Source: a virus (taxonomy: Duplodnaviria > Caudoviricetes). Taken from it: a stretch of 57,423 nucleotides of DNA. Position 1 is the first letter of the stretch. Every line of letters begins with the position of its first letter. The position numbers were made by a program, and so were the translations under genes. This document shows, in pieces, positions 1 through 55,937 of this stretch. The DNA lies in the IMG/VR virus record IMGVR_UViG_3300030329_003887, positions 1 through 57,423 of that record, one strand, 5' to 3'. The notes under the pieces were generated by a model that worked only from the letters and a program-made list of their open reading frames with translations, made no database searches and was not told the origin of the DNA.

Positions 1-100
1 ATGAATGAAGTGGCTGGATCTCCAACCATTCCACGAACAAGACGAAGAACAACAGCACCATCTGCATCAATAGCTTCTGCGGCTGCCAGCAATCGAGCGC
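1..100. repeat. Terminal direct repeat (assembly overlap of a circular/circularly permuted genome), left copy
   Basis: nt 1-100 match nt 57324-57423 except g99/a57422, which is synonymous (TGC/TGT) in the MoxR frame. Confidence 0.95.
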
Positions 101-914
101 AAGCAAACCAACTTCTTGGGCTGGGCCATGCTCTACCAGCAGACGCTTCGTCTTCAGGACAGTTCAGCAACTTCTCCGCGCCGAACCGTTTGATGTAGGA
201 AGAAACGAGTACTCGCTTTGAAGGAATGAGATCTTCCCATCCTTTCGGGAGCTTCGAAACTTCTGGGTCAGGAAAACCCGTAAGCATTCCGTCACACCAT
301 TCGTCTACGTTCAAAGAAAAATCAAGATGACACCAACGATTGGCAGCAGGTGGCGCAAGATCCCAACCACCGGCAGCTTGGTCCGCAGGATTTGCAGACG
401 CTGCGATGGAAAGATTCTCAGGCAACTGCAAGTCACCACACTTTCTTTCACCCACAATCTTCAGTGTCGCAGCTTGAACAGCAGGCGGCGTACAACTGTA
501 CTCATCCAAGTAAAGAAGAGCACCGCCAGATTCTGCAGACTCACAACAGTTGATGGCCCACTCAGGTGGGACACGAGAAAAGAAAGCGCCGCGTTTCGTT
601 TTTTCAGATTCACGGAGCTTCTGATATTCCTCAACAAGTTCTTTCGAAGAAAGATCACCAAGATCTTTATCGGAAAACTCGATGAGCTTCTCGAAAACAT
701 GCTTGTCGTCGTTTGAGTTTGCGTTTCCATCCAACATCGGAAGACCAACATCAGTTGGATCCCAAGTAGAACAGATCTGTTCAATAAGATTGAACTTCAA
801 CGACCTTGCGATTGCTTGTGTAATCATTGTCTTACCAACACCGGGCGGTCCCCACAAAAGTACGGGCTGCCCAGCTTGAATGCATATTGAATATGCTTGG
901 ATTACAGGGTTCAT
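1..914 (-). CDS. MoxR-like AAA+ ATPase, 5' part (continues through the junction to 56999; about 412 aa in total)
   Basis: Absent from the ORF track because it runs off the edge. Manual translation from ATG at 914 (GGAGGT RBS): MNPVIQAYSICIQAGQPVLLWGPPGVGKT (Walker A) ... LLYLDEYSCTPPAVQAA (Walker B) ... ASANP ... LAPPAANRW ... WPSPRSW. Confidence 0.9.
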   Translation of the reverse strand, partial: MNPVIQAYSICIQAGQPVLLWGPPGVGKTMITQAIARSLKFNLIEQICSTWDPTDVGLPMLDGNANSNDDKHVFEKLIEFSDKDLGDLSSKELVEEYQKLRESEKTKRGAFFSRVPPEWAINCCESAESGGALLYLDEYSCTPPAVQAATLKIVGERKCGDLQLPENLSIAASANPADQAAGGWDLAPPAANRWCHLDFSLNVDEWCDGMLTGFPDPEVSKLPKGWEDLIPSKRVLVSSYIKRFGAEKLLNCPEDEASAGRAWPSPRSWFACARLLAAAEAIDADGAVVLRLVRGMVGDPATSF

Positions 915-922
915 TTTCTTTT

Positions 923-1021
923 ACCTCCAAAAGCACCAGACAAAATCGTCTGGTGTGTGTGTTGATTTATTCAGCACACAGTAAGGGACATCTTCCATCC
1001 AATCGAGGACAGAAGATGTCC
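923..1021 (-). promoter_or_regulatory. Tandem-hairpin leader element, copy 1 (upstream of MoxR)
   Basis: Minus strand: GGACATCTTCTGTCC/GGATGGAAGATGTCC stem, CTTAC, TGTGTGCTGA/TCAACACACA stem, extra CACCAGAC/GTCTGGTG stem, then GGAGGT. Confidence 0.7.
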
Positions 1022-1061
1022 GATACTTTGAGCTGAAGCTTGAGAAACCTTTCTCTACTTT

Positions 1062-1742
1062 CTACCCACTGGGCGAAACATGGTATGGCCGCCCAGTTCT
1101 CTGTGCTGGTGACATACTGCAGGAGTATTGTTGGCCTTTCTTTCTAAACCAGAAACCACATTCATGGGATGGCATATTGTATGACATACAAGAGAAAGTC
1201 AGAACCAGTTCCTCTCCGCACTCGGGCACAAGAATAGTCCAGTGTTTTTTCATACTGACACGCCAGCTTTCTTCTGGCAGATCAATGCGAGACCATTTCT
1301 CAGACAACATTGGGTACCAGTCAAGATCCGGTGCTTGCTTCCTGAAAAAAGAATGCAGGAAAAGCATCTGTTCAGCACGGAATCCCATGTTCCGGCTCCA
1401 ATGAACTGGCATCGGATAAAGTTTATCCAGAATCTTGCTCTTTCTTTCACTGAGCAGAGGCTTCCAACCTTCTCTATATTTCCCAGCGTTCTCTTTCTTT
1501 CTGTGCCAACGAATCCTTGCGCACATTTCAAGGTGTTGAGCCAAAGCACGCGGGACTCCCTTACGAGACTCGGCGTAACTGAATCCAGAGTAGTAAAGAA
1601 AAAGTCTCCGGACTTCTTCGCATCGGGCACGCCGACACTGAGTCCGTATCTTCCCATTCTTGATTTCTATACTGTGTTTTCTCGCATTACCGTCTTCGTC
1701 GAGACACATGACACGGAAAGACACATCAGTATTCTCATCCAT
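1062..1742 (-). CDS. Hypothetical early protein (Cys/His motif near N-terminus)
   Basis: ORF with GGAGGT RBS 7 nt before ATG 1742 (MDENTD...); start revised from the track's 1796. Confidence 0.75.
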   Translation of the reverse strand: MDENTDVSFRVMCLDEDGNARKHSIEIKNGKIRTQCRRARCEEVRRLFLYYSGFSYAESRKGVPRALAQHLEMCARIRWHRKKENAGKYREGWKPLLSERKSKILDKLYPMPVHWSRNMGFRAEQMLFLHSFFRKQAPDLDWYPMLSEKWSRIDLPEESWRVSMKKHWTILVPECGEELVLTFSCMSYNMPSHECGFWFRKKGQQYSCSMSPAQRTGRPYHVSPSG

Positions 1743-1749
1743 TTTAGTT

Positions 1750-1811
1750 ACCTCCTTGGTTGTGCAAAAGCGCACAGTAAAAAGCACCAGCCGCAAAGAC
1801 TGATGCTTTTT
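1750..1811 (-). promoter_or_regulatory. Tandem-hairpin leader element, copy 2
   Basis: AAAAAGCATCAGTC-TTTGC-GGCTGGTGCTTTTT, AC, TGTGCG-CTTT-TGCACA, ACCAA, GGAGGT. Confidence 0.75.
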
Positions 1812-1822
1812 CCAACGAGCTT

Positions 1823-2476
1823 TTACTCTTCTTCCAAGATCGAACGATCGATCTCTCGGAGTACGCTGAGCAGACGATCAAAGTTTTTCTGATTGCCGAT
1901 GATTTTCTTTTCAGAAATCGACAGATCATTAAAGCTTTCGACATCTTGAAAAGAGTACTGAAGCAAGTCTGCCGCCATTACTCTGACATCAACATCATCT
2001 TCGAAAACATAGCTCCACTTTTCACCACGCTCTTCGAGTTCACTCTGCAAAAGTTCATAAGCAGAGCGCGCTGTCTTCAGCATGTACCGTTCGGGACGGA
2101 TCCGTTCCGCGTCAGGCCTCTCAGAAATCTTTTTCACAGCTTCTGTGAATGACTGAACCCAGTCGGGACTCATCGAACCCAAAAGATCGTAAGCAAAGTT
2201 CGCCGTTGCTTTCCGATTCGGAACGCCTTTCCATTCTGGATTATCATCAATCCATTCTTGGGCAGACTCGATTGCCTTCTTCTTCTTAGCCTCTCGGGCA
2301 TCGACACCAGCCTGAAAGAAATCAGACTCAGCTATATCGCCGAGAGTTTTCTCCTTGCCAGACTCCATAGGCAGAACCCCATCACTCTCATAAAAGTGAA
2401 GGCATTCCTGACTACACAAAGTCTCGCCCGCGATTTCTGATTCTTCGAAATCTTTTCCGCAGTGCATACACTGCAT
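1823..2476 (-). CDS. Hypothetical protein with N-terminal zinc finger (CxxC...CSxxC)
   Basis: CMHCGKDF...LCSQECL; GGAGGT RBS before ATG 2476. Confidence 0.75.
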   Translation of the reverse strand: MQCMHCGKDFEESEIAGETLCSQECLHFYESDGVLPMESGKEKTLGDIAESDFFQAGVDAREAKKKKAIESAQEWIDDNPEWKGVPNRKATANFAYDLLGSMSPDWVQSFTEAVKKISERPDAERIRPERYMLKTARSAYELLQSELEERGEKWSYVFEDDVDVRVMAADLLQYSFQDVESFNDLSISEKKIIGNQKNFDRLLSVLREIDRSILEEE

Positions 2477-2480
2477 ATTC

Positions 2481-2545
2481 ACCTCCTATTTGTGAGTCTT
2501 CATTGACTGCACAGTAAAACCCACCGACAAAAGCCGATGGGTTTT
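2481..2545 (-). promoter_or_regulatory. Tandem-hairpin leader element, copy 3
   Basis: AAAACCCATCGGC-TTTT-GTCGGTGGGTTTT, AC, TGTGCAGTC-AATGAA-GACTCACA, AATA, GGAGGT. Confidence 0.75.
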
Positions 2546-2560
2546 CCAATACATTCAAGG

Positions 2561-2806
2561 TCACGCCTCGATAAAAGAACCGAGCCGCTCTTCAATCTCT
2601 CGACAGACAAGACTGAACTTCTTCTGTCCGATGCGAAGGTTCTTCATTGCCCGCGCATGTTCGCCGAACTCATGTTCGACACAGTCCAGAATGTCTTGGC
2701 AGTTTGCATTGCTTCGACCAAGTCTTTGCCACTGTTCAAGAACATCCTCCAATGGACGTTTAAGTGGTGGCGGTTTCGGACGGTTTCTTTCTCTTTGTTT
2801 TCCCAT
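2561..2806 (-). CDS. Small hypothetical early protein
   Basis: 81 aa ORF with GGAGGT RBS, flanked by leader elements. Confidence 0.65.
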   Translation of the reverse strand: MGKQRERNRPKPPPLKRPLEDVLEQWQRLGRSNANCQDILDCVEHEFGEHARAMKNLRIGQKKFSLVCREIEERLGSFIEA

Positions 2807-2809
2807 GTT

Positions 2810-2872
2810 ACCTCCTTGTGCGCTTGGGAAATAGCAGCACAGAAAACCATTCCAATCTATAGAATAGTTTTC
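2810..2872 (-). promoter_or_regulatory. Tandem-hairpin leader element, copy 4
   Basis: GAAAACTATTCT-ATAGATT-GGAATGGTTTTC, TGTGCTGCT...AGCGCACA, A, GGAGGT. Confidence 0.65.
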
Positions 2873-2994
2873 TTTGTTTCTATTTCACTCATCGCACTAC
2901 CAGACTGTGCTGGACGTTTTATTTTCTGAGGCCGTGACGCAGGGCCGATAAAAAATCTACGCGCGCCAAGCTCTGCCGCCCAGTGGACCCAACA

Positions 2995-3032
2995 ACGAAG
3001 AAACCCCCCACCGTTTCCGGTGGAGGGTCTCT
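2995..3032 (-). terminator. Rho-independent terminator candidate downstream of ORF 3137-3892
   Basis: AGAGACCCTCCACCG-GAAA-CGGTGGGGGGTTTCT followed by TCGTT. Confidence 0.55.
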
Positions 3033-3136
3033 GATTGTGCGCGGGTCTCATTGTCCCGTGGCCCGCGTCCATAGATGACAGAACATGCCGCCAACTATGG
3101 CGAGGGTCGCCAGTTGAAGCAGAAACGGGTCCGGCA

Positions 3137-3892
3137 TTAGTTCGACGCCTTACCTTTTGCCCGTGGCTTTGCTCGCGGTTTGGGTTTCGGTTTTGCTTCC
3201 GGTTCCGGTTCCGGCATCGGTTCCGCGAGAACTTCACCATCATCGGACAAGTACCGGTCCCACGTTGTGCCATCGCTCCGGTTTTTTCGTTGCTTCAGGC
3301 TGTACCGGGCATCGTTCACCGCTTCCGGAACACCTTTGCCGCGTTTCTCGCAGTATGCAAGGCACGCGAGGTACTCTGCGCGAATCTCGCCGGGACGCGT
3401 CACGAACTCAGGCATGCCCGAACCGTAGCAAAGCAGACCGTCTGAATCCGCGTGTGAACCCCACTGACGGTTCACGGCTTCAAGGAACGTGGACCGCTTT
3501 TTGTCGCCCAGTTCCGCTTTCCATGTCGCCATCTGCTTCCGCGTCAGGTACATGGGAAAGCCCTTCGAGTTCATCAGTGGTTGGCCGATGAACTCTTCAT
3601 GCTTCACCACGGGTCGCCCTTCAGTCACGGTATCATCGAAGACACGTTTAACGAGCATCAGAACGCCGTTGTTCGCGGCGCTCGTTTCTCGTGGCGTCAT
3701 CCCCTGAGTCGGGACGAAATACACCGAATATCCGCACCCGATTTTATTATCGGGGTTGGATGGCTTCAGGTCATCGATGGCGAGCACTTGAAAAGAACCG
3801 GGCAACGCGGCACGGATGCCGCCTACGCGTCTCTTTTCGCCGTTTTCTTCGATGGTTTGAAAGGGAAAGGTTGTGAGTGTTGATTGTCGCAT
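3137..3892 (-). CDS. Hypothetical protein in GC-rich island, with a PE/PK-repeat basic tail
   Basis: About 251 aa from ATG 3892 (GGAG RBS); ends PMPEPEPEAKPKPKPRAKPRAKGKASN. Confidence 0.7.
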   Translation of the reverse strand: MRQSTLTTFPFQTIEENGEKRRVGGIRAALPGSFQVLAIDDLKPSNPDNKIGCGYSVYFVPTQGMTPRETSAANNGVLMLVKRVFDDTVTEGRPVVKHEEFIGQPLMNSKGFPMYLTRKQMATWKAELGDKKRSTFLEAVNRQWGSHADSDGLLCYGSGMPEFVTRPGEIRAEYLACLAYCEKRGKGVPEAVNDARYSLKQRKNRSDGTTWDRYLSDDGEVLAEPMPEPEPEAKPKPKPRAKPRAKGKASN

Positions 3893-4488
3893 TGTGATTT
3901 TCTCCAAACGAGCCCAAAAAAGCGGGGCTCAATCGCTCCGGGTCTGAATGACCCGTGAAAACCCGCGACACTGTAAAGGCTCGCGGGGTCACAAGGGCCA
4001 GCGGACACAGGGCCCGCCAGCCGGAGGTTTGGAGGGGCCGCCCGCTATGGGCGACCGTCCACCATATCGCGCCCACTGGGGCCACCCGCCAGCCGGGCCA
4101 CCTGCTCACCGCGACCCCGTGGAACGGGGAGGGCGGTAGCTGGGTGACGCCTCTGGTAAGGTGGAGTCAATGGGCTGGACTGTCAAGGAGCGGGAGGGGT
4201 GACTCGGGGGCGGGGTCCGAAGACCGGCACCGCAAGGTCACTACCAGTGTATCAAACAGGTGGGCACTTGTCGACGGTGGACGACGGGTGAGCTTCACCC
4301 GAGCTTCAGGTGCCCAGGGAGCTGTCAGCCCGGACGAATTTAGGCCGGCCGGCGAGGAGCTGGCCCGCACTGGGGTCCGCTCAGACGGGGAAAGAGCTGC
4401 AGCGAAAAGCATTCCCGGTTAGGGGGGGTGGGGGTTAGAGCCGAAGGCGGAGTCCCGGTGAGCACACATTCAAAATAGGCGAAAATTC

Positions 4489-5484
4489 TTGGCGGTTAAA
4501 AATAGACCAGTTTCAACCTTGTTTATGCGCGCAGGCAAATCCCAAGCAACTTGGGCGGACAACTTTGGAATGGAAAGTTTTCTGCAGGCGTTTGGATATG
4601 ACACGCCATTTCTACAGAATGAAAAGAAATATCAGCGGAAGTTAAATCCCAGCTTTTCTCGGGCCCTGAAACACATCCGTCAGTGGGCGCTGGACCACCC
4701 GATCTTGGGCTGCGGAATCTTAGATGAGCGATTCGGGGTCGCACCCCCAGAATGGGCTGGAAGAGTGCGGGATGCGTGGGGATTAGAAGAAATACCAACG
4801 CCATATGAAATGGCGTGTTCGTTTCTGTATACACCGGCACCGAGATTCTGGAAATCTTTGGAACGTAGCGACCCAAAATCTCTTTCTATGCTGTATTGGT
4901 TTCTGGCAGGAATGCCAACTCGGGCAATCGCGGAAATCTTCGAGGTTTCTCCGCCAACTGTCCACAATAGAATAGCTTCTGTTATTTCTTGGGCTATGAA
5001 GACGCCAAGATTTGCCTTATGGAGTCTTAGTACAGACTTGATTCCTTCGGCCACGAGTTTGACGAAGGCAAGAGCGGCGGCAGCTCTGTGGAGGGGCGAC
5101 CCAATGACGAAATGGCTGCCCGATCCCAAGGAAGCGCACAATGCGCTACAGGGAATCATGGATAGCCCCTATATTCGGGCCCAGTTAGCGAGTGGTCGGG
5201 CGTATCAGCCGATACCGAGGCCGATATACAGCCCCGATTTTGTATGGCCCGGCCTTGAGGCCAAGCGAAAGTGGGAATCCGAGGGCTCGATGTCCGCACG
5301 CTGGCTTATGCGCTGGCGTATGTACTTACGAGAGCGATTAAAGGGGGATGTGCCCACTTGGGTGCGCATTCCGGAGCGATGTCCGATATACTCAGTAGAG
5401 GATAGGGAGATTATCGATGTTCGACGACGACGAAAACGAAGAAAGCAGCTTGCAGCCAGCCGATCCGGCAATCCCCGGACTTGA
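4489..5484 (+). CDS. HTH-containing protein (sigma70 region-4/LuxR-like HTH), possible late regulator or packaging factor; start uncertain
   Basis: GMPTRAIAEIFEVSPPTVHNRIASV helix-turn-helix pattern; first gene of the + strand arm; basic C-terminus. Confidence 0.55.
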   Translation: MAVKNRPVSTLFMRAGKSQATWADNFGMESFLQAFGYDTPFLQNEKKYQRKLNPSFSRALKHIRQWALDHPILGCGILDERFGVAPPEWAGRVRDAWGLEEIPTPYEMACSFLYTPAPRFWKSLERSDPKSLSMLYWFLAGMPTRAIAEIFEVSPPTVHNRIASVISWAMKTPRFALWSLSTDLIPSATSLTKARAAAALWRGDPMTKWLPDPKEAHNALQGIMDSPYIRAQLASGRAYQPIPRPIYSPDFVWPGLEAKRKWESEGSMSARWLMRWRMYLRERLKGDVPTWVRIPERCPIYSVEDREIIDVRRRRKRRKQLAASRSGNPRT

Positions 5485-5794
5485 GGAACTGTTCTCAGAG
5501 AAGGTTCGGTCGATTGACCATGTGCTAGATTACGCCTCTACATGTGCGCTGGCTATTGCAAATGGGAATGTACCAGTAAAGTTTTCGAAGGAGCTAAGGC
5601 TTTGGGGTGAGCTTATGTATAGCTGCATTCAGGCACAGAAGGTCCAAGAGACAGATGGCGATGTCAACTTCATCGGCCAGTTAATCCAGATTGCAGGGAC
5701 TCCGGGGGAGGCGCTATTGAAGGATGCGCTTCCTGAGAAGGAAATCGAAGCAATCGAGATGGTACAGGATAAACCGATTGTGGTGAATGAGTAA
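5417..5794 (+). CDS. Hypothetical protein, possible terminase small subunit
   Basis: Acidic helical 125 aa ORF directly upstream of TerL (TAATG overlap); position-based only. Confidence 0.45.
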   Translation: MFDDDENEESSLQPADPAIPGLEELFSEKVRSIDHVLDYASTCALAIANGNVPVKFSKELRLWGELMYSCIQAQKVQETDGDVNFIGQLIQIAGTPGEALLKDALPEKEIEAIEMVQDKPIVVNE

Positions 5795-7590
5795 TGTCTA
5801 ATCCGGGCAAACCGTCTACACCTATTGGGCAGCAACTAGGGGGAGGGGGGAGTCAAGTGGGGTCTCAGACGCCGCAGACAAACCCAAAAGCCCAGCAGGT
5901 TCTGTCCTTTCTCCAATCGCCAATCAAGTCATTGCCTGCGTTCGGTCAAGTACATGATCAGCGAACGGGTCAATTTGTGAAGTATGATCCTTACCGACTG
6001 ACCAAGACGTTGCAAGCAGAGATTCTAGAATACCTATCAAATCCACCACTTACGAATGCAAATCAAGCTAAGTTTCTGACTGTCCTCACGGCGCGTCAGA
6101 TGGGTAAGTCTCTGACATCTGAGTACGGGTGTTACCCAAAAGCGGCTTTTACCCCCGGACATGACCATGTTTGTATTGCGGATACTAAAGATCGAGCCGA
6201 GTATCTCCATAAACGTGTTCACCATCTTCATGAGCGCTGGCCAACAAAAGTTCGTAGTAGGCAGATCCCGAATCGAGAAGCGCGGCAGTTGACCTTCCGC
6301 CCCATGGAAGGGGGAAAGATGCGTGTCCTCTCGGCAGAGACCGGAGCTGTAGGTATCGGGCAGAGTCCCGATACGTTTCACGCTTCTGAGTGCGCATTCT
6401 GGGCTGACTTCGCTGGATCAATGTTCCTTATCTGGCCGTCTCTCATGAACCGAGACCATGCTCTTGCCATCTTTGAGTGTACGCCTTGGGAAGCTAGAAG
6501 TGATTGGCATAACCACTGCTTAGAAGCCAAGAATGGGGTAGGTCGCCACACATACTTGTTTAAACCTTTCTGGGATGGGCACTTGAATGCCCGTCCTTGG
6601 GATAAAGACTGGAAGCTCACAAATGAAGAAGTAGATCTGATGAACCAGTACGGTTCAGTTGGTTTAGAGTTGGAGAACCTCGCCTTTCGTCGTTTGATTA
6701 TGGAGACAGACGTAAAGATTCGACGGCATCCAGAGTTCTTCCGGGTTTTCTACCCATTCGACGATGTGAGTTGTTGGCTAGCAAGCGCACAGTCTGCCAT
6801 CCCGTCACATGTGTTGGAACGTCATCAGAATAAGAAGCTTGTTCCGTGGAGAGGTCCGTATAAAGAGTATGAGCAACCGGATCCCAACGCTTATTACGTC
6901 ATGGGAGTTGACCCTTGCGGTCATGCTGCCCGAGATCATGCATCTTTTCAGATCCTGAAATGCTATGACGGTGAGTGGACCCAAGTTGCGACATACGCAG
7001 AACACAGCGATCCGATCGTGTTCACAAGAGAGATCGTTCGCGCCGCGAAGAAATACAACAATGCTCTGGTCGTCGTAGAATCTAATGGTGTTGGGCAATC
7101 TGTTTTGGCCCTTCTTCGAGACTGGGACTATTCGAATGTTTTCTACGAAAAATTAAAGCGACCGGGCTTTACAACAACCTCCAAATCTTTGGGCCAGTGC
7201 ATGGGTTGGCTCACTGACGCCCTCATGGATGAGCTTGTTCTGAATGATGAGAACACTGTTGAGCAGCTTCTAAGTTATCGTAATGACAAGATTATTGAGG
7301 AAAACGTAGCTTCAGAAATTGCGCGAGGCCAAGCATCAAATCGGCGAAGAGAGCGTCATCACTGGGATAAGGTTTCTGCGCTCAGTATGGCAGTTGTTGG
7401 TGCGCGCTGGGCCCCACGTCGCCAAAAAATGAGTCCTGAAAAGCGGGATGTGGATAAGAATGTTGTGCTCTTCCCTACATGGGACTCTTGGAATGCGTAT
7501 CAAAAGAGCGCAGAAGAGCAAAAATCGCGTCGTCCTTCCTTGCGGAAGAGCCATGGATCGTGGTACAGAAAAGGTCCAAAGTGGAAATAG
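5794..7590 (+). CDS. terL: Terminase large subunit
   Basis: Walker A-like ARQMGKS, Walker B-like FHASECAFW, FECTP coupling motif, RNase H-like nuclease YVMGVDPCG, VVVESNGVG, late HWD. Confidence 0.92.
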   Translation: MSNPGKPSTPIGQQLGGGGSQVGSQTPQTNPKAQQVLSFLQSPIKSLPAFGQVHDQRTGQFVKYDPYRLTKTLQAEILEYLSNPPLTNANQAKFLTVLTARQMGKSLTSEYGCYPKAAFTPGHDHVCIADTKDRAEYLHKRVHHLHERWPTKVRSRQIPNREARQLTFRPMEGGKMRVLSAETGAVGIGQSPDTFHASECAFWADFAGSMFLIWPSLMNRDHALAIFECTPWEARSDWHNHCLEAKNGVGRHTYLFKPFWDGHLNARPWDKDWKLTNEEVDLMNQYGSVGLELENLAFRRLIMETDVKIRRHPEFFRVFYPFDDVSCWLASAQSAIPSHVLERHQNKKLVPWRGPYKEYEQPDPNAYYVMGVDPCGHAARDHASFQILKCYDGEWTQVATYAEHSDPIVFTREIVRAAKKYNNALVVVESNGVGQSVLALLRDWDYSNVFYEKLKRPGFTTTSKSLGQCMGWLTDALMDELVLNDENTVEQLLSYRNDKIIEENVASEIARGQASNRRRERHHWDKVSALSMAVVGARWAPRRQKMSPEKRDVDKNVVLFPTWDSWNAYQKSAEEQKSRRPSLRKSHGSWYRKGPKWK

Positions 7591-23104: not shown

Positions 23105-24679
23105 ATGACTAAAAAAATGGATCCAGTATTAGAAGAAGCTCTTATCCGGGCGAGCCCTGAAATCAATCAGTACTTACAGGCTAGCAAGGGCAAAAGTGCG
23201 CTTGAAAAGTTTAGTGACTTTTTTCGGTTGGCTCCGGATACCCGACCAGAGGAGCTTCGCCAAGTTCGGGCGAGTTCGGATAGAGCCCGCGCTAATCGAG
23301 ACGCCCTTATTCAATCTAAAGAGGAACTCGAAAGGAAGTACTACGGTGAGTTCGTAGCACTCCAACAAGCAGCGCAAGAGGGCGATCGAGAGGCCAGAAA
23401 AGCTCTCATGTCAAAGACACCTGACCTCATCAAACATATTGTTGAAGTCATGAAAAGTTCCAATCAAGTTCGCGGCCAGAATGCAACTGCTCTCGCCAAT
23501 TTAGTTGGAAAAATGCACGAAGCAGACAATGAATGGGCTGCTGCAACGGACATAAATCACGCCTCATCGGATACTCAACTACGCTTTGCTGATGCGTGGA
23601 CTGCAATGACACAGTTCACAGATGCGGAGGGGAATCTCAATATCGCAGATATTGGATCACAACAGCAAGTCCTTAATCAACTAACAGAGCTTTTTACTGA
23701 GGCTAACGCTAGGGGAGATCATTCTAATGTTCTTGGGGCACTGAATGAAAACCTCAAACGGAGGGGAGTATCTGGTGGCGTGCGGGGACTTTATGATGCG
23801 CTGAATGCTGGTTCAGTATCGAATCCAGATGGCATGACCTATGTCGGCTCGACACCTGAGATTACAAACTTCAATAGAGCACTCGAACCTTCATTGAATC
23901 TAGAAGCAGCAGCCCTTGATGTTCGCCAACAAGCTAAGGATGAGTACTCTAAGTTTTCGACTAAGCTCTCAAAATCTTTGGGAGGGCAGGGGGCAGGCGC
24001 ACTCCTGAAGTACATAGATAAAGTTTCAGCACAAGGACACGCATCCCTCGTTGAGTACGATGAGTACATGAAAAAACGGGAAGCCGAACGGGGAGTGACT
24101 CCGGGAACGGAAGATCTGCTCAGTCGAGTTTCGGAAGATGCCCGAAAACGTCTTCCACATAACTTTGATAAGCTTGACCCAACGCAACAAGAGCTACTCA
24201 TTAGAGCCGGAGAACAATGGCAAATGGCCGAAGCTCTGAAGAATACGCCGATTTACGACACTCGAAAACAAGCAGCGTATGCGAGTATCCAGAATCATCC
24301 TGCTTTTATGGAATGGTTTGAGCAGTCCAATTTTACTGATCTGAATAAGGGTACCGAGCATTTTATCGGGCTTCAGCAGCAAAACATGGAACGCTTAGAG
24401 AATCAATACGGTGGAGAAGCCGGGTACCAAGCTGAGGTAAAAGAACGTCGAGGGATTGCAGGAGACCCCCGTACCGTCACTGGACCTAAGAAAGCTCGAA
24501 TGCAAGCTCTCAGACAGAGATTGCCGAGTCTTCCTGCAGAGGAACCAGAAAGTTCGCCTGCCGCATCGGTTGGTGGGGCAGTACTGCCCACAGATAAAGG
24601 GGGAGAAGAAAAGACGAAGACGGTTTCACCTGTGACTCAACATTATATGAAGCAGCTCCAACCGAGTAAGAGCGTATAA
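23105..24679 (+). CDS. Putative internal virion/ejection protein (medium)
   Basis: 524 aa, mostly helical, no Cys. Confidence 0.55.
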   Translation: MTKKMDPVLEEALIRASPEINQYLQASKGKSALEKFSDFFRLAPDTRPEELRQVRASSDRARANRDALIQSKEELERKYYGEFVALQQAAQEGDREARKALMSKTPDLIKHIVEVMKSSNQVRGQNATALANLVGKMHEADNEWAAATDINHASSDTQLRFADAWTAMTQFTDAEGNLNIADIGSQQQVLNQLTELFTEANARGDHSNVLGALNENLKRRGVSGGVRGLYDALNAGSVSNPDGMTYVGSTPEITNFNRALEPSLNLEAAALDVRQQAKDEYSKFSTKLSKSLGGQGAGALLKYIDKVSAQGHASLVEYDEYMKKREAERGVTPGTEDLLSRVSEDARKRLPHNFDKLDPTQQELLIRAGEQWQMAEALKNTPIYDTRKQAAYASIQNHPAFMEWFEQSNFTDLNKGTEHFIGLQQQNMERLENQYGGEAGYQAEVKERRGIAGDPRTVTGPKKARMQALRQRLPSLPAEEPESSPAASVGGAVLPTDKGGEEKTKTVSPVTQHYMKQLQPSKSV

Positions 24680-27600
24680 TGGCAGACGAAAAAGAATTCC
24701 CTGATTCAGGCTTTCAACCGGGATTTTTTCTGACGCTTGCCCAGCAGGCAGACGATGATAAGTTCTGGGAAAGAGCTGAAGCGGACTACAAGCGAGCTAT
24801 CGGAGAACCGGTAGACGAGCCTGTATTCGCCACAGGGGCTGTTCCTAAACCAAAAACACCAGCACAGATTGCTAAACAGCAACAAAATATAATTGATCTG
24901 GGCACCCCAGAATCAGAACTTCCTCAGCTTTCTCCGACTCTGGCTCGACACGCTAGCCCAGAAGTTGCTTTGAATCTTCGTCATAGTCTTTCTCAGGGTA
25001 CTCAGATTGACGAGAAAGAAAAGCATATGTATTTCACTCGACATTATATTCAGAGTGAGCCTTTTCGAAAGAGAGTTGATTTAGATTTCGAAGCGGGCAA
25101 TATGACGCCCGCACAACAAAATCGTGTGCAGTTTGCCCGTGAAGTTCTCGCTCAAATGGGAAAATCTTCTGAGCTTAAAGATCTTCAGAATGAAATTGAT
25201 TCTGTCGAAAAAGCCATAGCAAATCTTCCCCAAGCGCCCCGCGCTCGTACCGATGTTATTGTCGGCAGCTCTTACGACAAGGAAGACCAAAAGCTCATAG
25301 CGGAAAGGGGCACTCTTGTTCGGGAACTAAAAAAGAAAAAAGCAGAAATGCTTAAGTCCCAAGAAGGGGTAGAGTCTTTCTTAGCCGGGGTAGATAGTGC
25401 GGTTATCCAAACAACGGGGGTAGGCCCGTCTAAGCGTCTTCGTGTCAACACCACAAGAGATCCCCTAACAGGGAAAGTAGCACTGGATATTGATACAACA
25501 TTTCCACTGCTGACGAGAGCTTATACGAGAGACATTCTCCAAGATCGGGGTTTGTCCTACACAAATGCTTCTCCAGAACAACTGAGAGAAGTCCACCAGA
25601 TTGCACACGATAAAGCTGCTAGCGATATCATTTCAGTTGGCCTGCGAATGCGGGATTCGATTTTCTATGACTCGAATGTTCCGGTAGTTGAAGACCTTGC
25701 GGAAAAACCAGCATGGGAACGTCGTCTCCTGTCTTTCTCAAAACGAAAGGTTGGAACCGGAAATACCCACTGGATCGGCAGAAAGATTGGATTGCCCCAA
25801 GATACTTATGGTGTCTTCAACCCCACAGTTGACGAGCTTGCACGAGAAGGGACATTATCTTGGACAATGCGCATGAGTCCGATGGACTATCAAGCGATCA
25901 AGATGAAGATGATTCGAGATGTTCTAACAAAGAATGGCAAAGAGTTGATGGATATCGATGATGCGGCTCTATATGCTTACGCTTACATCAATCCTTTCCT
26001 ATCCTCAACAGTTGCAGCAGCTAATCTGCCAGCAGGAGCATTAGGGATAGAACTAAGCGCCCCTGATACCGATGATATTATGCGGGACTTGGGCATCACA
26101 CCCGAACAGGAAGTTGAAACCTTTCTTCGGGGCCACTACCACTTAGACGAAGGCCGAGCTATTCAGGGTGAAATGTCCGCCATGATGGCAAAAGCATTTG
26201 GGGCGTCGAAAGCGGAGCAGTTCAAAGCAAGGGAAAGCACAGAGAATAGTAAATGGTCTGCTGTCGCGCCATTCATGACGTACTTTGTTGATCCTGACCT
26301 GATCACACTGAGTCTTCTGGGCTTTGGAAAGGGCATCAGCATGGCCTTAAAGCTCCATCGCTTCCATAAACTGAACAAGTTTGCGGACAGGATGGATGAA
26401 GCAGCGGCTGATCCTGCCATGACCTATGATAAGTTTCGACAAACTTTGCGTGAAGAAGACCCAGCTAAAGCGCAGGTACTACAAACATACGTTGAGGGTA
26501 AACTGGGAGAACCTTCTGGGACAATCAGTTCTCTCGACGAACATCGCCGAACAATCAAACAGGCGTATCGTGATTCTCAGAAAGAACTAAAGAATACCGC
26601 CCCAGAAGCGGTTGATACGATTCCCTATAAGCAAGTGGAGACTATGCTGGAGCGGGAGCGCATAGTTGATACCATTACTGCGAAAGAAAAAATAGCCGCT
26701 AAGGCTATTGATAACTTTAAAAAAGCAGAAATAGCTTTAAACGACGCCAAAGCAAATGTTCTGCCAGTCCCCCGGAGGCAGACTCATTGGAGAACAGAGT
26801 TTGAGCCCGGAGGTGTGGCTCGACCAGCACCTAAGAGTGCTGAGGAAGCGGCCATCGCAGCTAAGGTTGATGCCCGAATTCCACATTCTCCGAAGATTGG
26901 GTCGATCACGTCAAAAGAGATTCGAGAAGCTGCTGCGGCGGTTCCCGAAGGTTCCCCTTCTGGTTTTGTTTCAGGTATTCGATTCCAGATGGATCTCGGA
27001 GAGTTGAAGATCCTTTCAGCCGAAATCCCGGAGAATCTTCGGCATAGGGGTATGGGCTTCGAACTCTACTTGCAGGCTTTGAAAGAGGCAAAAAACAAGG
27101 GGTATGGTTTCCGTTCAGGTGATGGACTTAAACAGCCCCCGGTTATGAAACTCTACAAGGATCTTGAAGAAGCAGGAGTCCCACTTCGAGTTTCCGTAGA
27201 AGATGTACCAAACACTACACTCCGTGTTCACGATTTTAGTCTTCCGGCCAATGACTTAGCCAAGCTTGATCTCGATAAAGTTCTAGAGGCGTATCAGGCT
27301 AAGCATGCGGACAAGGGTCCGGGTCCGCTCTTCAATCGACCGGGGATGGTTGTTCGAGAAACTGCGCCGCAGTTTCTTCTTCCACTATTCGATAATCTGG
27401 AAGAAGCGGCGTCTGCTGTCCAGAAGGCGAAGGGCCAAGTCAAAAAAGCTAAGGATGATCTGAGACAGTTCGATAATTCTTTGCCATACGGTCCAGAGCA
27501 TCCGTTTGTTGTGGACTCTATGGGCAGGCAGTTTGACATTAAAGATGTCATCAAACTGAGGAAAGCAGCCGAAAAAGACCCATACATCTACAAGATCCTT

Positions 27601-30600
27601 GATGACATGATTCAACTCAAGTCAGAAGAAGTAGCTCTCTTGCGCTTTGGTGTTGATGATATCCAAAAAGAAATGCGGAAATTGTATATCGAATACCGAA
27701 AGCAGAAAGGTATTCGGCGTGGGTTGGAGAAGTCAGCCGCAAAGCTTCGAGAATACGAGGCTCAACTGGCTATAGAGAACAGCCTAAGCGTACCTTTCCA
27801 GAAATACGTTTATATGCAGAACCAAGTTCAGCAAATGGTGGGTCAACTTTCACCTGTATCAGCTAAGATCGATGAACTTAATTCGATTGAAACTAGTTTT
27901 GTCGGGATATGGAAACATCAAAAAACTCTGGATGATTTTCGCAAAACAAAAGACCTTTCTCCTGATTTTGTTCAAATACAAAGAGATCCCCTTCCGGGCC
28001 AGATTATGGAAGGTCTTGAGACAAGTCCCGGAGATTTTAATCGCCGTATGGCAGACCTCTTTGATGAATCGGGGGCTTACCTAACAGCGGAAACCACTCG
28101 TCGGTCTTTGATTATAGAGCTTCAAACATTCCTAAATGAAAGGAAAAAGAATGCCCTGAAACAGCACAATCTGGTTGAAGCTCCCGCCTCCCATAAAGAG
28201 CTAATCGACCAGATTACTGACCTCAAAGCTATTAGAAAAGAAATAGAAGATACGATAAAGAAAACAGAAACCGAACTCCGGGTCATCGCATCCTCTTCAT
28301 CACGCCATCAGTGGTTTGAACTGCAAAGGAAAGTACTGAAGCTGCAAGATGCGCGTTCGGTTATCAAAGAAGAGCTGGACGCACATAAGGCTTCAAGTAA
28401 AGTCGATTACATCGGGACTCCCCAACTTCCCCGGATGTTGCGTGACGCAGGGTTAGAGCGGGAGTTCGAAGCAGCCACACAATGGATTGAAAAAAACGGT
28501 TCCGTAAAAGCGAGAGAGGTTCTTGAGGACTTAAAGATTGGGGAGAGAGGATCAACCTTTTTGGGGCTGAACCGGGTAGATTTCCAAAAAACTCTAGAAG
28601 CTATTCGGGAATCGAAAGGCCCAATAGGGTGGAATAAAAAGCTTAAAGAGATTGAAAGCCGCTACAAGGATGCGCACTGGGAACTTAAAGAGGCCCGTAA
28701 AGATCGGCGATACGTCAATAAGATGGCGCAAAAAGAATACGATCTGCTGACCGCTAAGGCGGAAGCGGGTGATGTGGCTGCCCAAGAAGCGCTGAAAGGT
28801 GTCATCACAAAAGAACAAGAAGATCTGTATAAAAAACTTCTGGACCAAAGCCGAGCAGAAAGCCGACGATTGAAGAAAGCAGAAGAGTTGTTCGTTGGGG
28901 ATGTTGCTCTTACAAAAATGGAAGAAAACTATGCGCTTTTAAATAAGAAGCGCCGGTCACTCTTACCTCAGATAGTTCGGGCAAACCGAGAGCTAAAATC
29001 TCTTGTCTCAAAAGCATATGCGGCCAACCCACAGAAGCTCAAAGCTGCCATTAATAAGCGAAAGGAAGACCTAAAGGGTACCAAGGATCAGAAAGCTAAA
29101 GCTAAAGGGACTACTCTGACTGGGCAGATCCTGTCAGAACAACAGAAAGTGATTGATGCTCTGTTCAGAACCCACCAAAAAGTAAAAAAGGCTAAGAAGG
29201 CTGCCCGTTGGCGGAAGATTGCAAAGCAGGGAGCTGATGATTTCCGTAAGCTGGCCGAAGTATCCCGCAAAAAAGCTTCTACGATAAGCCTATTCCCCCG
29301 AACGGGCCTTCAAACAGTAAAAGAGAATGCCCACATTGGGCAAAAAATCTTTGGCAAAGCCATCAAAGAAGTGGGTCCAGCGAATGTACCGATGCCCAAG
29401 ATGGCTCTTCGACTTACCCCAGATGTGACAGAAGCTTCCCTCGATACAGCAAATGGGATTAAGATTTCAGGCACCGTGGATGATGGGCAGTTTCTCATTA
29501 AAGAGTTTGAGGTTCCCAGTCCGCTGAAGAACTCGACAGAAGAAGCCCACGCTATCGCAGAAACATTCGACTTTGCTCATCGCAATAGCTATTCCTTAGT
29601 CCTCAGCCCTGAAGCTGGGAACATGCGCTTTAATCTACAAGCTGCGCAAGTCCGCTTCTCAGGCAAAAAGGGCCAGTGGACATCGACGAGAGAAATGATT
29701 CAAGAGTTGGAGTCCCCCATTGTTCGGGAATCATTAGAGTTCAATAGTTCTATTTTGGAAATCAATCCCGCTGGGCTACGGAATAAAATCGTCAAAGAGT
29801 TTGGAGAGGACGCTCTTGAGCAGACGATTGCCCGGAATGGGGCAGATGGTCAACTCCTGAAATCAGTCTTAGAATCCAGTGGACCCGTCAGGATTACAGC
29901 AAGAGAGGCGGGAGCCTTACAAGATGACTTAGCAACCTCTCTGGCTGTCTGGGCAGAAAGATTATTACCAGAGAATCAAGAGCTTAAGCTGGCATCTGAA
30001 ATGGCTGAAGCCAGTATTGCTTACTCGATCAACAATCCCGGTGTAAAGGGGCTTCTGTACAAAGGCCTTAATGCCCTTGTCTGGCAGTTTGACCCACAAC
30101 TTGCCCGAATCGGATTGGCCAGTAAGCATCAAGATGACATTTTAAAAGCGGGTGAAAATCTCTTTGACCAGTCCAAGGGGGAACTTGCCAGTATTCTTCG
30201 GGGTGTAGGCGACCAAGACGCAGCAGTCAGTAAAATACATATGTATTTGGATGGTACGCAATCTTACACAATGACGATGAATCGAACGACTGTAATGAAT
30301 GTCGGACCGAAGACGCATTTTGAGCGGGCAAAAGAGTATGCCGCTGCCGATAAGGGCACCTATGCCCTAAAAGGCGGGAAGAAAGGGGCAAAAGAAACCC
30401 AGAAAGTCGATGCTGCCCAAGGCTATGCTGATGTCCAAAGCCTTCTCCGGGACGGAGCGAACCCATTTATCCTTGGTGTATCCCGCATGTGGCTACCCCG
30501 AGGATGGACAGCTTCGCAGGGACTGGGAAAAACTCTCTACTCTCAAGCTCGGAAGGTTATCGCCAACTCAAGCTCATATGAAGAAATGGCGAAAAAGATG

Positions 30601-53577: not shown

Positions 53578-53623
53578 TGAGAAAAGGGTTCCCCCAGAAA
53601 AACTAGGGGAACCCTTTCTTTTG
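53578..53623. terminator. Terminator ending the early - strand block (possibly bidirectional)
   Basis: GAAAAGGGTTCCCC...GGGGAACCCTTTC stem with T-runs on both strands, directly after stop at 53624. Confidence 0.65.
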
Positions 53624-54439
53624 CTACAAAGCTTGCAGCGCGGCGACAACAGAATGTTTCTTTGTCTTCTCTACCGCATCATGCATGCCTTGAAGTGTTT
53701 CACCGAGGATAGCTTCGAAGCCTCGAATCTTTTCGCGAAGTTCATCCGACTTCTTCAGGCGATTCTTGAGGGCATTCTTCTTCATGTCCTTGGTGGAAAC
53801 ATCTTTCTCAATGAGAGCCAACTCCTTCTGGATGTCAGCATCAAGAGAAGCAATAACGCTCTTCACCGAATCATCATCAAGGACAGTCGTGAACAGGGTT
53901 GCTCTCGTCCGTCCATTAATGCTGCAGTTTTCAGCGCACCGGACCACACTCTTCCATTCCGGAACAGAGTTTTCTGGAATCCAGTAGGCACCGCCACCAC
54001 CAGAGAGTGCCGGAATACCATTCAGGCATCGGGTAGCAATCTCCACCAGCATTCCAGAAACTGCTTCCGGTGGAATGTACCCAAGCTCTCGCTGATACCG
54101 GGCATTGATTTCATCTTCAATATCGATCGGCTCAGAAAACTCAAGACCAAAGGTTCCCACCTTGACGGTCAAACGGGATTCACCCTTCCAAGAAGTAGAA
54201 GTGCATTCCGTCTTAATGACTGCGAAGTTTCCGTGGTTGTTCAGGGGCTTGACTTTGTCATTCCCGAACAGTCCCCGCAAAGTATTTCTCAGTGCAAGAT
54301 GCTTGGTTGTCGGTGATGGAACATAATCTGCCAGACCAAGTTCAGACATGCCTTGAAGCAAGCGGTCTCGGTCAGTTGATGATGATCTCCATGATGTGAG
54401 ACATCCATTAGTTTTGAGTTGAAAGTTATCTTCATTCAT
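53624..54439 (-). CDS. Hypothetical protein of the MoxR/vWA neighbourhood (coiled-coil C-terminus)
   Basis: 271 aa, GGAGGT RBS, GGGAYWIP motif. Confidence 0.75.
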   Translation of the reverse strand: MNEDNFQLKTNGCLTSWRSSSTDRDRLLQGMSELGLADYVPSPTTKHLALRNTLRGLFGNDKVKPLNNHGNFAVIKTECTSTSWKGESRLTVKVGTFGLEFSEPIDIEDEINARYQRELGYIPPEAVSGMLVEIATRCLNGIPALSGGGGAYWIPENSVPEWKSVVRCAENCSINGRTRATLFTTVLDDDSVKSVIASLDADIQKELALIEKDVSTKDMKKNALKNRLKKSDELREKIRGFEAILGETLQGMHDAVEKTKKHSVVAALQAL

Positions 54440-54447
54440 TTTATTTT

Positions 54448-54530
54448 ACCTCCAAAGTAAATGCGCAAAACGCGCAGTTGTATTGCTGAATGCAACACAC
54501 AAAAGAGCACCAATAAAACTATTGATGCTC
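54448..54530 (-). promoter_or_regulatory. Tandem-hairpin leader element, copy 5 (variant)
   Basis: GAGCATCAATA-GTTT-TATTGGTGCTC, TTTTGTGT, GTTGCATT/AATACAAC, TGCGCG-TTT-TGCGCA, GGAGGT. Confidence 0.55.
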
Positions 54531-54555
54531 GATTGACTGGTGCATTAAGCGAAGT

Positions 54556-55830
54556 TCAGTCAGCCACCTGAACAACACGGGCCCATTCTGGGACTCTGCG
54601 TCTGCTCCCATTTCTGGTCAAGACAATGATTACCCTCATTCCTTTTGGGGCAACCCTTGGCCAAGGGGATTCGCCATCGGTAATCACGATACACAGATCA
54701 ATCTTGGGCCGAAGTTTTCTGGTAGCTTCGATACCGACACGCATGTCTGTTCCACCACCACCTAAAGTTTCTACTTTAGATGCTCGTGTAACTTTCTGCT
54801 GCGAGTGTACTTGAGAATCGGTTGCCAATACTCGTACACCCTTGCCTCCGAGAGCACGAATGACGCCTTGCGTTTCCGAAAGGGCATCATCCAAGTCACC
54901 GCCGAACATTGAAGCAGATGTATCCAATACAATAGCCGTATCGGGGATTGGTCTACGTGATGCGGGCATAACAAAACGCCCGTAAATAGATTGTCGGCGG
55001 CTCGGCTTCTTGTAAGTGAAGTCAACAGCACCAGCGACATCCGCTACGCAGGCTCGAACAGCCGAAGCCAACTCTTTCTGCCAAGGAATCTTAGGCGGGG
55101 AAAGGTTTTCTCTAGCTTTATTCAGGATGCCCAGAGGAACACGCCCTACATTCTTGGCATGCTCTTCAATCTTTTCCGAAGCTTGCTGCTTCAGAACTTC
55201 GAGCAATGCAGCAGAGATTTCTTCTACACCACTCTCAGCTTCGGGCCCGTCTTCCCAAGAACGCTGGCGTCCATCCATAGATGAACCCCCGTCTTCTTCA
55301 GGTGGAGAATCACCCCCTTCGGATGAGCCTTCACCTTCGCCTTCGCTTCCACTTTCTCCTTCCCCTTCCCCCTCTTCGTCTTCTTCGTTTTCATCTTCAT
55401 CATGAATATGTTCGAAGTAGTACTCGGCAAGCTTCCCATTTTCAAGGTCAAAGTTTGTCGGTAGATGGGGCGGGTAGGCTGAAGGGAAAGGGCAGCCTTC
55501 TGCTTGGAGATCGTCATTGATTTCACAATCAGCGGCGATGTTCCAATCACGAAAGCTACGACCATTGACACGTTTGTAGTGCTCAAGAAAAGTATGCAAG
55601 ACTTCATGCTGCCACATGGTAGCCAACTCTGGAACACTCAACTCCAGAACAAAGCGTGTGTTGAAGTAAAATCTTCCGAGGGTATCTGTACCCACAGTTG
55701 GAATCTCTTTCTTCGGCACAAGAGCCATTGCCATGAAGTTGGTATCAAAGTACGGCCAGCGTTTGATAGCCGCCAGCCTTGCAGCTTTGAGTTTAAACAA
55801 AGCTTCCTTAAGTTCTTTCTCTTCTTCCAC
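54556..55830 (-). CDS. Metallopeptidase-like + vWA domain protein (DUF2201-like), MoxR partner
   Basis: HEVLH (HExxH), NIAADCEIND, acidic linker, vWA MIDAS DTSAS, GGGGTDM, VITDG..PWP. Confidence 0.88.
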   Translation of the reverse strand: MEEEKELKEALFKLKAARLAAIKRWPYFDTNFMAMALVPKKEIPTVGTDTLGRFYFNTRFVLELSVPELATMWQHEVLHTFLEHYKRVNGRSFRDWNIAADCEINDDLQAEGCPFPSAYPPHLPTNFDLENGKLAEYYFEHIHDEDENEEDEEGEGEGESGSEGEGEGSSEGGDSPPEEDGGSSMDGRQRSWEDGPEAESGVEEISAALLEVLKQQASEKIEEHAKNVGRVPLGILNKARENLSPPKIPWQKELASAVRACVADVAGAVDFTYKKPSRRQSIYGRFVMPASRRPIPDTAIVLDTSASMFGGDLDDALSETQGVIRALGGKGVRVLATDSQVHSQQKVTRASKVETLGGGGTDMRVGIEATRKLRPKIDLCIVITDGESPWPRVAPKGMRVIIVLTRNGSRRRVPEWARVVQVAD

Positions 55831-55834
55831 ATTA

Positions 55835-55906
55835 ACCTCCTATTTGTGTGCGTTGTGGATTGTACACACAGTAAAAGACACCGACCTTTGCGGGCCGGTG
55901 CCTTTT
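55835..55906 (-). promoter_or_regulatory. Tandem-hairpin leader element, copy 6
   Basis: AAAAGGCACCGGCC-CGCAAA-GGTCGGTGTCTTTT, AC, TGTGTGT...GCACACA, AATA, GGAGGT. Confidence 0.75.
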
Positions 55907-55937
55907 CCTACGGATACAATCAGTCTACCGCCTAGCT

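Follow-up and report, generated by a model that had tools for sequence, protein, structure and literature searches.

Repeated intergenic elements that combine regulation with the shuffling of genes have, to our knowledge, been shown mainly in T4-type phages, where they carry host-type promoters. The element described here comes from a virus of the Caudoviricetes (Duplodnaviria) recorded in IMG/VR as IMGVR_UViG_3300030329_003887, and it is a different case: a family of structured RNAs that Rfam lacks, found in a clade of uncultured marine phages without a close cultured relative. Six copies stand in gaps of a - strand operon in the window, by which is meant the complete virus record of 57,423 nt. 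Each copy has a terminator-like hairpin (hairpin 1), a second hairpin (hairpin 2) and a ribosome-binding site, and in most copies inspected an outer helix (P0) joins hairpin 2 to the end of the upstream gene, so that the architecture, which is clear and backed by covariation, is that of a terminator-like hairpin nested in a predicted two-state fold over the upstream stop codon.

Several described systems share part of this architecture. Leader-peptide attenuators are built from mutually exclusive helices, one strand of which is masked when a ribosome reaches the end of a short or upstream reading frame, and the present element likewise has exclusive helices and a strand that a ribosome would cover. 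What separates it from a classical attenuator is that both states contain the terminator-like hairpin; with the switching strand placed after that hairpin, termination there is beyond the reach of the switch. At lambda sib/tI and in the T7 early region a terminator hairpin that is read through joins a longer duplex able to take ribonuclease III (RNase III), and such intercistronic hairpins are left as protective hairpins on the processed messages. A terminator-like hairpin within a longer predicted duplex of RNase III size is also found here, and may likewise be cleaved; the element differs in standing at every boundary, in placing an alternative hairpin beside the ribosome-binding site and in laying its outer strand over the upstream stop codon. 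The retroregulation exerted by sib is named with its role in a published account (PMC5300877).

The promoter-early stem-loop (PeSL) of T4-type myoviruses is described as holding a strong sigma-70-like promoter, with -35, -10 and an AT-rich upstream region, inside the motif (PMC2839356; PMC4122927). In the parts of those reports that set out the motif it is a repeated intergenic composite of ~100 nt with a terminator-type stem-loop, ending in a Shine-Dalgarno sequence and ATG at its 3' end; it flanks open reading frames (ORFs) of unknown function in a variable region, and between close relatives ORFs have been inserted, deleted or replaced at junctions that lie in the motif. The element is like the PeSL in each of these respects, and the stem-loop, Shine-Dalgarno sequence and start codon are present in all canonical copies. 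It lacks, however, a sigma-70-like promoter, its phage is not T4-like (the portal is of P22/SPP1-like and the adaptor of SU10 type), and the second hairpin and outer helix, with their two-state fold over the stop codon, set it apart from the PeSL as those passages describe it. The SAS and ESAS repeats of Cluster K mycobacteriophages comprise a 13-bp SAS consensus 3-7 bp before the start codon and ESAS arms for which the authors see little support for RNA pairing (PMC3203893). In the description given there they too are phage-specific repeats of one orientation just upstream of non-structural gene starts, with an inverted repeat of variable spacer ahead of the ribosome-binding site, and a function is known for neither. 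The sequences are unrelated, GGAGGU and an A-rich spacer standing before the start codons here where the SAS consensus is absent; pairing in the present element is backed by compensatory changes, and the SAS, in that description, comes without a terminator-like hairpin.

Should the function proposed below be correct, the switch would make the processing or stability of each junction in the operon depend on translation of the gene before it, and modular gene exchange would follow a simple rule. Short and self-contained, the element can be put to the test in reporters without culture of the host.

Three helices and their covariation

A preliminary description of the window, made from its letters alone, had proposed that six - strand gaps share a layout, and in each of them (c1 to c6; Table 1) the sequence indeed holds a strong hairpin, a second hairpin and a GGAGGU site. 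Folding of the gaps against shuffled sequences gave z = -8.41, -5.13, -4.54, -6.02, -4.76 and -3.88 for c1 to c6, with 0/200 shuffles as good in each. The junction motif TTTTACTGTG occurs exactly three times in the window, always on the - strand and in the gaps of c2, c3 and c6 (mean 0.10 in shuffles, none of 100 reaching three), and TGTG..CACA followed by a GGAGG-type site is found at four places (c2, c3, c4 and c6) against 0.69 per mononucleotide shuffle. The shared layout thus holds for all six, and what has to be given up is the equality of the copies: c2, c3 and c6 are canonical, c4 and c5 are degenerate, and c1 is a three-hairpin variant. Of two covariance models, the first (R1) and a second built from 12 copies (R2), R2 scores c2 at 69.3, c3 at 64.4, c6 at 60.9 and c1 at 28.1 bits (E 3e-4 for c1) and lists neither c4 nor c5 at E <= 1, R1 giving these two 15.5 bits (E 0.24) and 8.8 bits (E 6.6), respectively. 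Copy c3 reaches 77 bits with R1 and is identical at 87.5% of 56 nt to a copy in G001, a true relative of the phage; c4 fits the pattern of hairpin 2 plus ribosome-binding site; c5 has two terminator-like sites. A third hairpin lies ahead of the ribosome-binding site in c1 and c5, and the same three-hairpin form as in c1 precedes MoxR in the loci L145, L198 and L147.

Hairpin 1 has 13-15 bp, with a G+C core, an A-run on its 5' side and a U-run on its 3' side. That stem sequences differ between copies with pairing kept, and that the imperfections are G·U pairs on the - strand, had been noted in the preliminary description, which called for a test of covariation; both observations hold in the sequence, and the test is clear. 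Among 22 model-aligned copies, counted as sequences and not as independent events since several rows come from close relatives, 12 of the 14 pairs of hairpin 1 are changed on both sides and 97.7% of cells are paired, a value that neither 500 shuffles nor any slid register approaches. An alignment made without the model (MAFFT with RNAalifold) returns the same two hairpins, with compensatory changes at 13/19 pairs. The cells of hairpin 1 comprise 245 Watson-Crick pairs, 47 G·U and no A·C, and the strand that folds is therefore the sense strand. Natural variation is of the same kind: a contig that differs from the window at just 2/218 nt carries its two changes on the two sides of one c1 pair, 1016-991 (U-A to C-G, compensatory), and three stem changes among natural variants of c2 all keep the - strand pairing.

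The sequence features of an intrinsic terminator, a G+C-rich hairpin followed directly by a U-rich tract and placed downstream of a stop codon, are all found in hairpin 1, which is on these grounds a putative terminator. The core has a predicted stability of -7.5 to -20.6 kcal/mol, and five to seven of the next 10 nt are U in 22/22 copies. The 3' U positions stay U where their A partners on the 5' side become G, U or C, an asymmetry to be expected from a requirement for the U-run itself. Hairpins at the operon ends of the same genome resemble hairpin 1.

Hairpin 2 has a UGUG/CACA base and a variable top, and ends 4-6 nt before the ribosome-binding site. Its conservation in related phages, on which the preliminary description had staked its case, is near complete, each of the four basal pairs being kept in 21-22 of the 22 copies; since these pairs are invariant they are by themselves uninformative on structure. 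Twelve distinct hairpin 2 sequences are found, 11 of which form at least 5 pairs.

The helix P0 and its link to the stop codon are new here and absent from the preliminary description. In P0, 8 nt around the stop codon of the upstream ORF pair with the loop and the first 3'-arm bases of hairpin 2, and the helix became visible once the 15-26 nt before hairpin 1 were included in the comparison. Its two sides change together, as in GUAAAAGC/GCUUUUGC, GUUUGAUU/AAUCAAGC, GUGUGAUU/AAUCAUGC, GAUUGUAU/GUACAAUC (the last in c6) and further pairs; when the 16 copies whose hairpin 2 is short are aligned with MAFFT, 5/8 pairs are changed on both sides and 91.8% of cells are paired. The stop codon starts inside or abutting the flank in 14/22 copies and 4-7 nt before it in another 5/22.

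P0 and hairpin 2 are mutually exclusive, and the RNA therefore has two states. State A consists of hairpins 1 and 2, and state B of one interrupted hairpin of ~26 bp made up of P0 (8), two 2-bp steps and hairpin 1 (14), with small internal loops. The free minimum-energy fold is state B in 22/22 copies, and when the first 13 nt are held single-stranded all 22 are predicted to switch to state A, hairpin 1 being present in both the free and the constrained fold throughout. In c2 the long hairpin has -30.5 kcal/mol when free against -25.0 with the flank held open, and in c6 -35.3 against -29.7. The cognate flank contributes a mean of -4.7 kcal/mol compared with -0.64 for shuffled flanks, and in 20/22 copies at most 3 of 100 shuffled flanks match the cognate gain (3/100 in both c2 and c6). 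Swapping the flanks of the two main loop alleles abolishes the gain, from -4.5 and -5.7 with the cognate to -1.3 and -0.1 with the non-cognate flank. The strand ACUGUGC is invariant, for which no protein need be invoked, because it pairs in both folds.

Related phages and gene-cassette junctions

The element was sought by motif scans and by a survey of relatives of the VWA protein encoded in the operon, filtered by the models R1 and R2. At least five contigs of related uncultured marine phages carry it repeatedly, as does an unrelated contig of low GC, and it is also found in two short metagenome contigs; its copies are always co-directional and just ahead of start codons. The true relative G001 (56.7 kb; the same as L145), whose terminase, portal and capsid are identical to those of the window at 78%, 79% and 90% of amino acids, has seven copies, the first gene of its block having none. 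Five copies are found in L289, four to five in L286/L198 and four in L291/L147; three are found in L148, which has 26-31% G+C and no protein in common with the window, and the short metagenome contigs L400 and L405 have two copies and one. Among 40 loci in the VWA survey, strong model matches are confined to 6 loci with at least 51% identity, 2 further loci at 35% identity (L297/L298, on the same contigs as L001/L002) have weak matches, and the remaining 32 have none at E <= 0.05. A scan of IMG/VR with GGTGNNTTTTACTGTG returned at least 120 stretches; of 80 loci searched, L025, L031, L074 and L073 are members and the others are without a convincing model match. In a second IMG/VR motif scan, with 75 loci searched, several good matches were found in L198 only.

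Among the genomes of 185,579 species, a motif scan gave 43 matches, single occurrences in unrelated phyla of the kind expected by chance, and from the one pattern scanned there is no sign of a host-encoded family of such elements. The best bacterial match, in Alcanivorax, was set aside as a lone intergenic terminator with no ribosome-binding site and no second copy that convinces, a genome-wide model search adding one weak match (27.8 bits, E 0.015).

The suggestion that this is a phage-specific cis-acting RNA family and not a named motif is upheld by the covariation, by the retention of hairpin 2 and by the search of Rfam 15, in which the only match of the window at the gathering threshold is a tRNA-Leu. 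At E <= 5 there are just microRNA-type hairpin matches far below threshold (window 900-3100; L145 1200-7600), and no match to known small ribozymes. In the literature the letters of the motif met only unrelated primer listings among the matches listed, supplementary files excluded, and a search for intergenic motifs of marine phages gave nothing relevant.

Exchange of genes at the elements is seen most directly between L287 and L289, whose core proteins are 95-100% identical, yet which carry different ORFs between elements, before MoxR. Nucleotide homology breaks at L287 positions 1594/5, 2351/2, 2845 and 3878/9, which fall immediately ahead of an element, on the ATG that follows one or in between its hairpins 1 and 2, and for a fifth time at 4864, where the next ORF common to both begins. 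The elements of the window and of G001 share 83-88% identity, compared with 67-72% for the MoxR and VWA genes beside them; among the small ORFs homology is limited to a 46-residue stretch of the 217-aa gene. Contigs from other samples align to the window at the elements only. The role of cassette boundary, one of three offered in the preliminary description, thereby receives direct comparative support from the breaks, and at the level of such sequence comparison the elements are shown to serve as gene-cassette junctions. The block of hairpin 2 and ribosome-binding site would provide the homology for swapping cassettes of an ORF plus hairpin 1, because it is nearly identical between copies and between phages.

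Folded gap by gap, distant relatives yielded no scorable common architecture. Several observations on individual relatives are recorded here. The relative of the VWA gene in L002 (35% identity) lies in a syntenic MoxR-ORF-VWA operon (1450-7380) in which five or more gaps show a variant of the layout, two successive hairpins leading to AAAGGAAAGAA and ATG, with GTTCTACTAC after hairpin 1 in two gaps. By eye, a UAG stop in one of these gaps lies within a flank able to pair with the 5' arm of the second hairpin, and the copy that follows the VWA gene likewise combines a UUGAUU flank with an AAUCAA loop. In L290, a 17.3-kb locus with a VWA relative of 37% identity, a 15-bp palindrome, TGTAAG-N3-CTTACA with AAA after it, recurs ~17 times, in most cases immediately ahead of a gene start (30 strand-matches, 0.09 expected); its fixed spacing and the lack of strand preference among its mismatches make it look like a DNA operator and not an RNA hairpin. 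At L145 1541-1606, in G001, a possible hydrophobic mini-ORF of 21 codons, seen by eye, overlaps the first small gene at its stop and terminates within, or immediately ahead of, the flank of element e1, the computed stop of the 21-codon ORF being 7 nt before that flank.

A possible translation-sensitive switch and its rivals

The reading that we favour, at a probability of roughly 0.45 and on the strength of sequence and predicted folds, is that the element joins a terminator or attenuator to a translation-sensitive switch of processing or stability, and is at the same time a cassette junction. Hairpin 1 with its U-run would terminate or attenuate transcription intrinsically and shield the 3' end of the upstream message. 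Transcripts reading through would fold into state B, a duplex long enough for an RNase III-type enzyme. Since the stop codon lies in or near the flank, a terminating ribosome would open P0 in most copies and shift the RNA to state A; whether the junction is cut or decays would in this way depend on translation of the upstream ORF, and hairpin 2 would, after cutting or opening, cap the 5' end of the downstream message. RNase III is reported to accommodate ~22 bp (PMC6212723), and the ~26 pairs of state B, predicted in 22/22 free folds, extend beyond this length. A processing or stabilising site, as the preliminary description had suggested, becomes more plausible through P0, which in the predicted fold lengthens the duplex to ~26 bp. 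The third role offered there, that of an attenuator passed with the aid of a phage factor, is conjectural. A more far-reaching version, which we consider doubtful, would hold that every cistron boundary in the phage clade is a ribosome-sensing two-state switch, in which the terminating ribosome of gene n converts a long nuclease-sensitive duplex into two hairpins, a terminator and, for gene n+1, a 5' cap, translation sets the fate of the junction, and the match of flank and loop allele defines groups compatible for cassette swapping.

A number of observations weigh against such a switch. In 3/22 copies the stop codon is 13-16 nt upstream of the flank (16 nt in c6), and P0 is weak in c3 (ddG -0.2, 46/100 shuffles as good) and in L291_3890 (11/100). 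No P0 was seen on inspection of c1 by eye, c4 and c5 lying outside that inspection, and the covariation of P0 rests on a few loop alleles common to related phages and therefore represents few independent events. In the more distant L002 the U-run is missing from two copies of hairpin 1. If hairpin 1 terminates efficiently, the expression of six successive genes from one promoter lacks an explanation, and P0 cannot affect termination itself because its 3' strand is made after the U-run. The ribosome-binding site is hidden in neither predicted state, so the output of the switch is not evident from the sequence. Among the 17 sequencing runs listed, none is an RNA run with the phage. Finally, the phage has no close cultured relative, the best match of its terminase among cultured phages being 26.5% identical.

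In a simpler account, the elements are plain leaky intrinsic terminators with a standard 5' leader hairpin, partial read-through lowers expression step by step along the operon, P0 merely stabilises, and there is neither endonucleolytic processing nor ribosome sensing. The G+C core, the 5-7 U in the 10-nt tail and the conserved U positions are what such terminators would have, hairpin 1 resembles the operon-end terminators at 3032-2999 and 53618-53582, and an exposed ribosome-binding site in both folds is in keeping with it. Covariation of the hairpin 2 loop with the stop-codon flank is, however, left unexplained, as are the invariance of UGUG/CACA (21-22/22 copies) and the position of the shared strand as the most conserved part of the element, and we hold this account to be unlikely.

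It is improbable that the elements are composite terminator-promoter cassettes of PeSL type, with the TTTTACTGTG block as a promoter for an unrecognised phage RNA polymerase or sigma factor and a separate transcript for each gene starting from hairpin 2. The order of stem-loop, conserved block, Shine-Dalgarno sequence and ATG, and the swapping of cassettes, fit the PeSL as described in the part of its report that defines the motif (PMC2839356), and the invariant block is conserved in sequence and does not covary. Its invariance is, however, accounted for by the double pairing duty of the strand. No sigma-70-like -35/-10 pair is present: a scan of window 1-6000 gave 5 sites against 3.9 expected, the single site within an element (c2, 9/12 match) covers the stretch from Shine-Dalgarno sequence to ATG, and the alignments A7 and A8 have no conserved -35/-10 columns. 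From the U-run to the ribosome-binding site there are just 23-35 nt, the spacing of TGTG and CACA varies from 8 to 19 nt, and the copy missing from the first block gene of G001 is a further point against promoter cassettes. As for the polymerase, the 2685-aa ORF of the window is without a Pfam or PHROG match and without the five RNA-polymerase motifs tried as regular expressions, which is a weak test. Sigma-54 and LexA-box readings of the junction, tried by eye, gave no fit.

Hairpin 2 or the long hairpin might instead be a site for a protein, either a nut-like antitermination site, where a factor would be loaded to act at the next terminator, or the operator of a translational repressor. To this could be ascribed the invariant base of the helix, the conserved flanks UUUAC and AAAC(A), and the AAUCAA loop, which is kept even in L002 where the neighbouring protein is just 35% identical; the first gene product, of 81 aa, moreover has a basic N-terminus in a translation made by eye. 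In the four relatives compared, however, that protein lacks a homologue, the proteins scanned yielded no RNA-binding domain, and the conservation of the loop is accounted for by its pairing in P0, so that we give a protein site little credence.

Least credible, and in our view highly improbable, is an element acting in DNA, with coding-strand single-stranded hairpins as sites of recombination or replication like the attC of integrons, for which speak the array of co-directional ORFs each followed by an imperfect inverted repeat, the exchange of cassettes at the repeats, the Sak4-like annealing protein and exonuclease that the phage encodes, and the tolerance of G·T in DNA hairpins, by which the wobble asymmetry identifies the strand and not the molecule, but against which stand the lack of an integrase or tyrosine recombinase among the proteins scanned, the constant spacing from the ribosome-binding site and the stop-codon overlap that tie the element to the message, the identity of the folded strand with the transcribed sense strand, and a search by eye in which no integron attC core sites were seen.

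The operon and neighbouring features

The first 100 nt of the window (1-100) repeat its last 100 (57324-57423) with one mismatch, G at position 99 against A at 57422, and the record is on this sequence evidence circular or terminally redundant, with a real length of ~57,323 nt. The mismatched position is also polymorphic in two sequencing runs. Because of the repeat, the - strand block runs unbroken across the record ends, as had been presumed. It is bounded by a terminator-like hairpin on either side (Table 1), and its genes are, in order, those for proteins of 81, 217 and 226 aa, a MoxR-type AAA ATPase, a coupled ORF of 354 aa, the DUF2201 metallopeptidase/VWA protein and a DUF6744-like protein. 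It was likewise correctly noted that ORF 55938-57002 has no copy of the element and overlaps the MoxR stop.

Table 1. Positions in the window of the six element copies and of the terminator-like hairpins at the operon ends, in operon order
Feature	Position	Strand	Parts and remarks
Terminator-like hairpin, operon start	2999..3032	-	closes preceding - strand gene; 15-pair stem, 9 G-C pairs, U-rich tail; R1 12.5 bits as generic hairpin
c4, degenerate, before first gene (81 aa)	2804..2874	-	hairpin 1 2842-2872; hairpin 2 (UGUGC..GCACA) 2817-2841; GGAGGU 2810-2815; ATG 2804-2806
c3, canonical, before 217-aa gene	2474..2562	-	stop of 81-aa gene 2561-2563; hairpin 1 2516-2545; AC 2514-2515; hairpin 2 2491-2513; GGAGGU 2481-2486; ATG 2474-2476
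c2, canonical, before 226-aa gene	1740..1828	-	P0 5' strand 1819-1826, containing TAA stop 1823-1825; hairpin 1 1779-1811; AC 1777-1778; hairpin 2 1761-1776; P0 3' strand 1764-1771; GGAGGU 1750-1755; ATG 1740-1742
c1, three-hairpin variant, before MoxR	912..1023	-	hairpin 1 986-1021; CUUAC 981-985; hairpin 2 956-980; hairpin 3 934-955; GGAGGU 923-928; ATG 912-914
c6, canonical, before DUF2201 metallopeptidase/VWA gene	55828..55921	-	P0 5' strand 55914-55921; hairpin 1 55873-55906; AC 55871-55872; hairpin 2 55845-55870; P0 3' strand 55858-55865; GGAGGU 55835-55840; GTG 55828-55830
c5, degenerate three-hairpin variant, before DUF6744-like gene	54437..54532	-	hairpin 1 54505-54530; hairpin 2 variant 54479-54499; hairpin 3 54462-54476; GGAGGU 54448-54453; ATG 54437-54439
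Terminator-like hairpin, operon end	53582..53618	-	strong, without second hairpin; 16-pair stem, U-rich tail; R2 16.6 bits as generic hairpin

A blastn search of 53600-57423 against cultured phages gave no match. Elsewhere the phage encodes a family A DNA polymerase fused to a uracil-DNA-glycosylase domain, an SNF2 helicase and a primase-like protein, in addition to the portal and adaptor already mentioned. The polymerase ORF, of 851 aa (43865-46420, - strand), has an N-terminal domain of the uracil-DNA-glycosylase superfamily, a 3'-5' exonuclease domain and the family A polymerase. The tRNA-Leu (anticodon TAA; 50567-50651, - strand) lies between the SNF2 helicase and primase-like genes. In the structural block, the 2685-aa ORF (24679-32736, + strand), for which no Pfam family scored above threshold, contains a 154-residue stretch 32% identical to a region of G001. 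The gap that separates the operon-end terminator from the next - strand gene holds a 40-nt inverted repeat (53395-53555), 80% complementary and with its arms 81 nt apart, which encloses short direct repeats (three copies of 11 nt and two copies of 10 nt) and could be a replication origin or control region.

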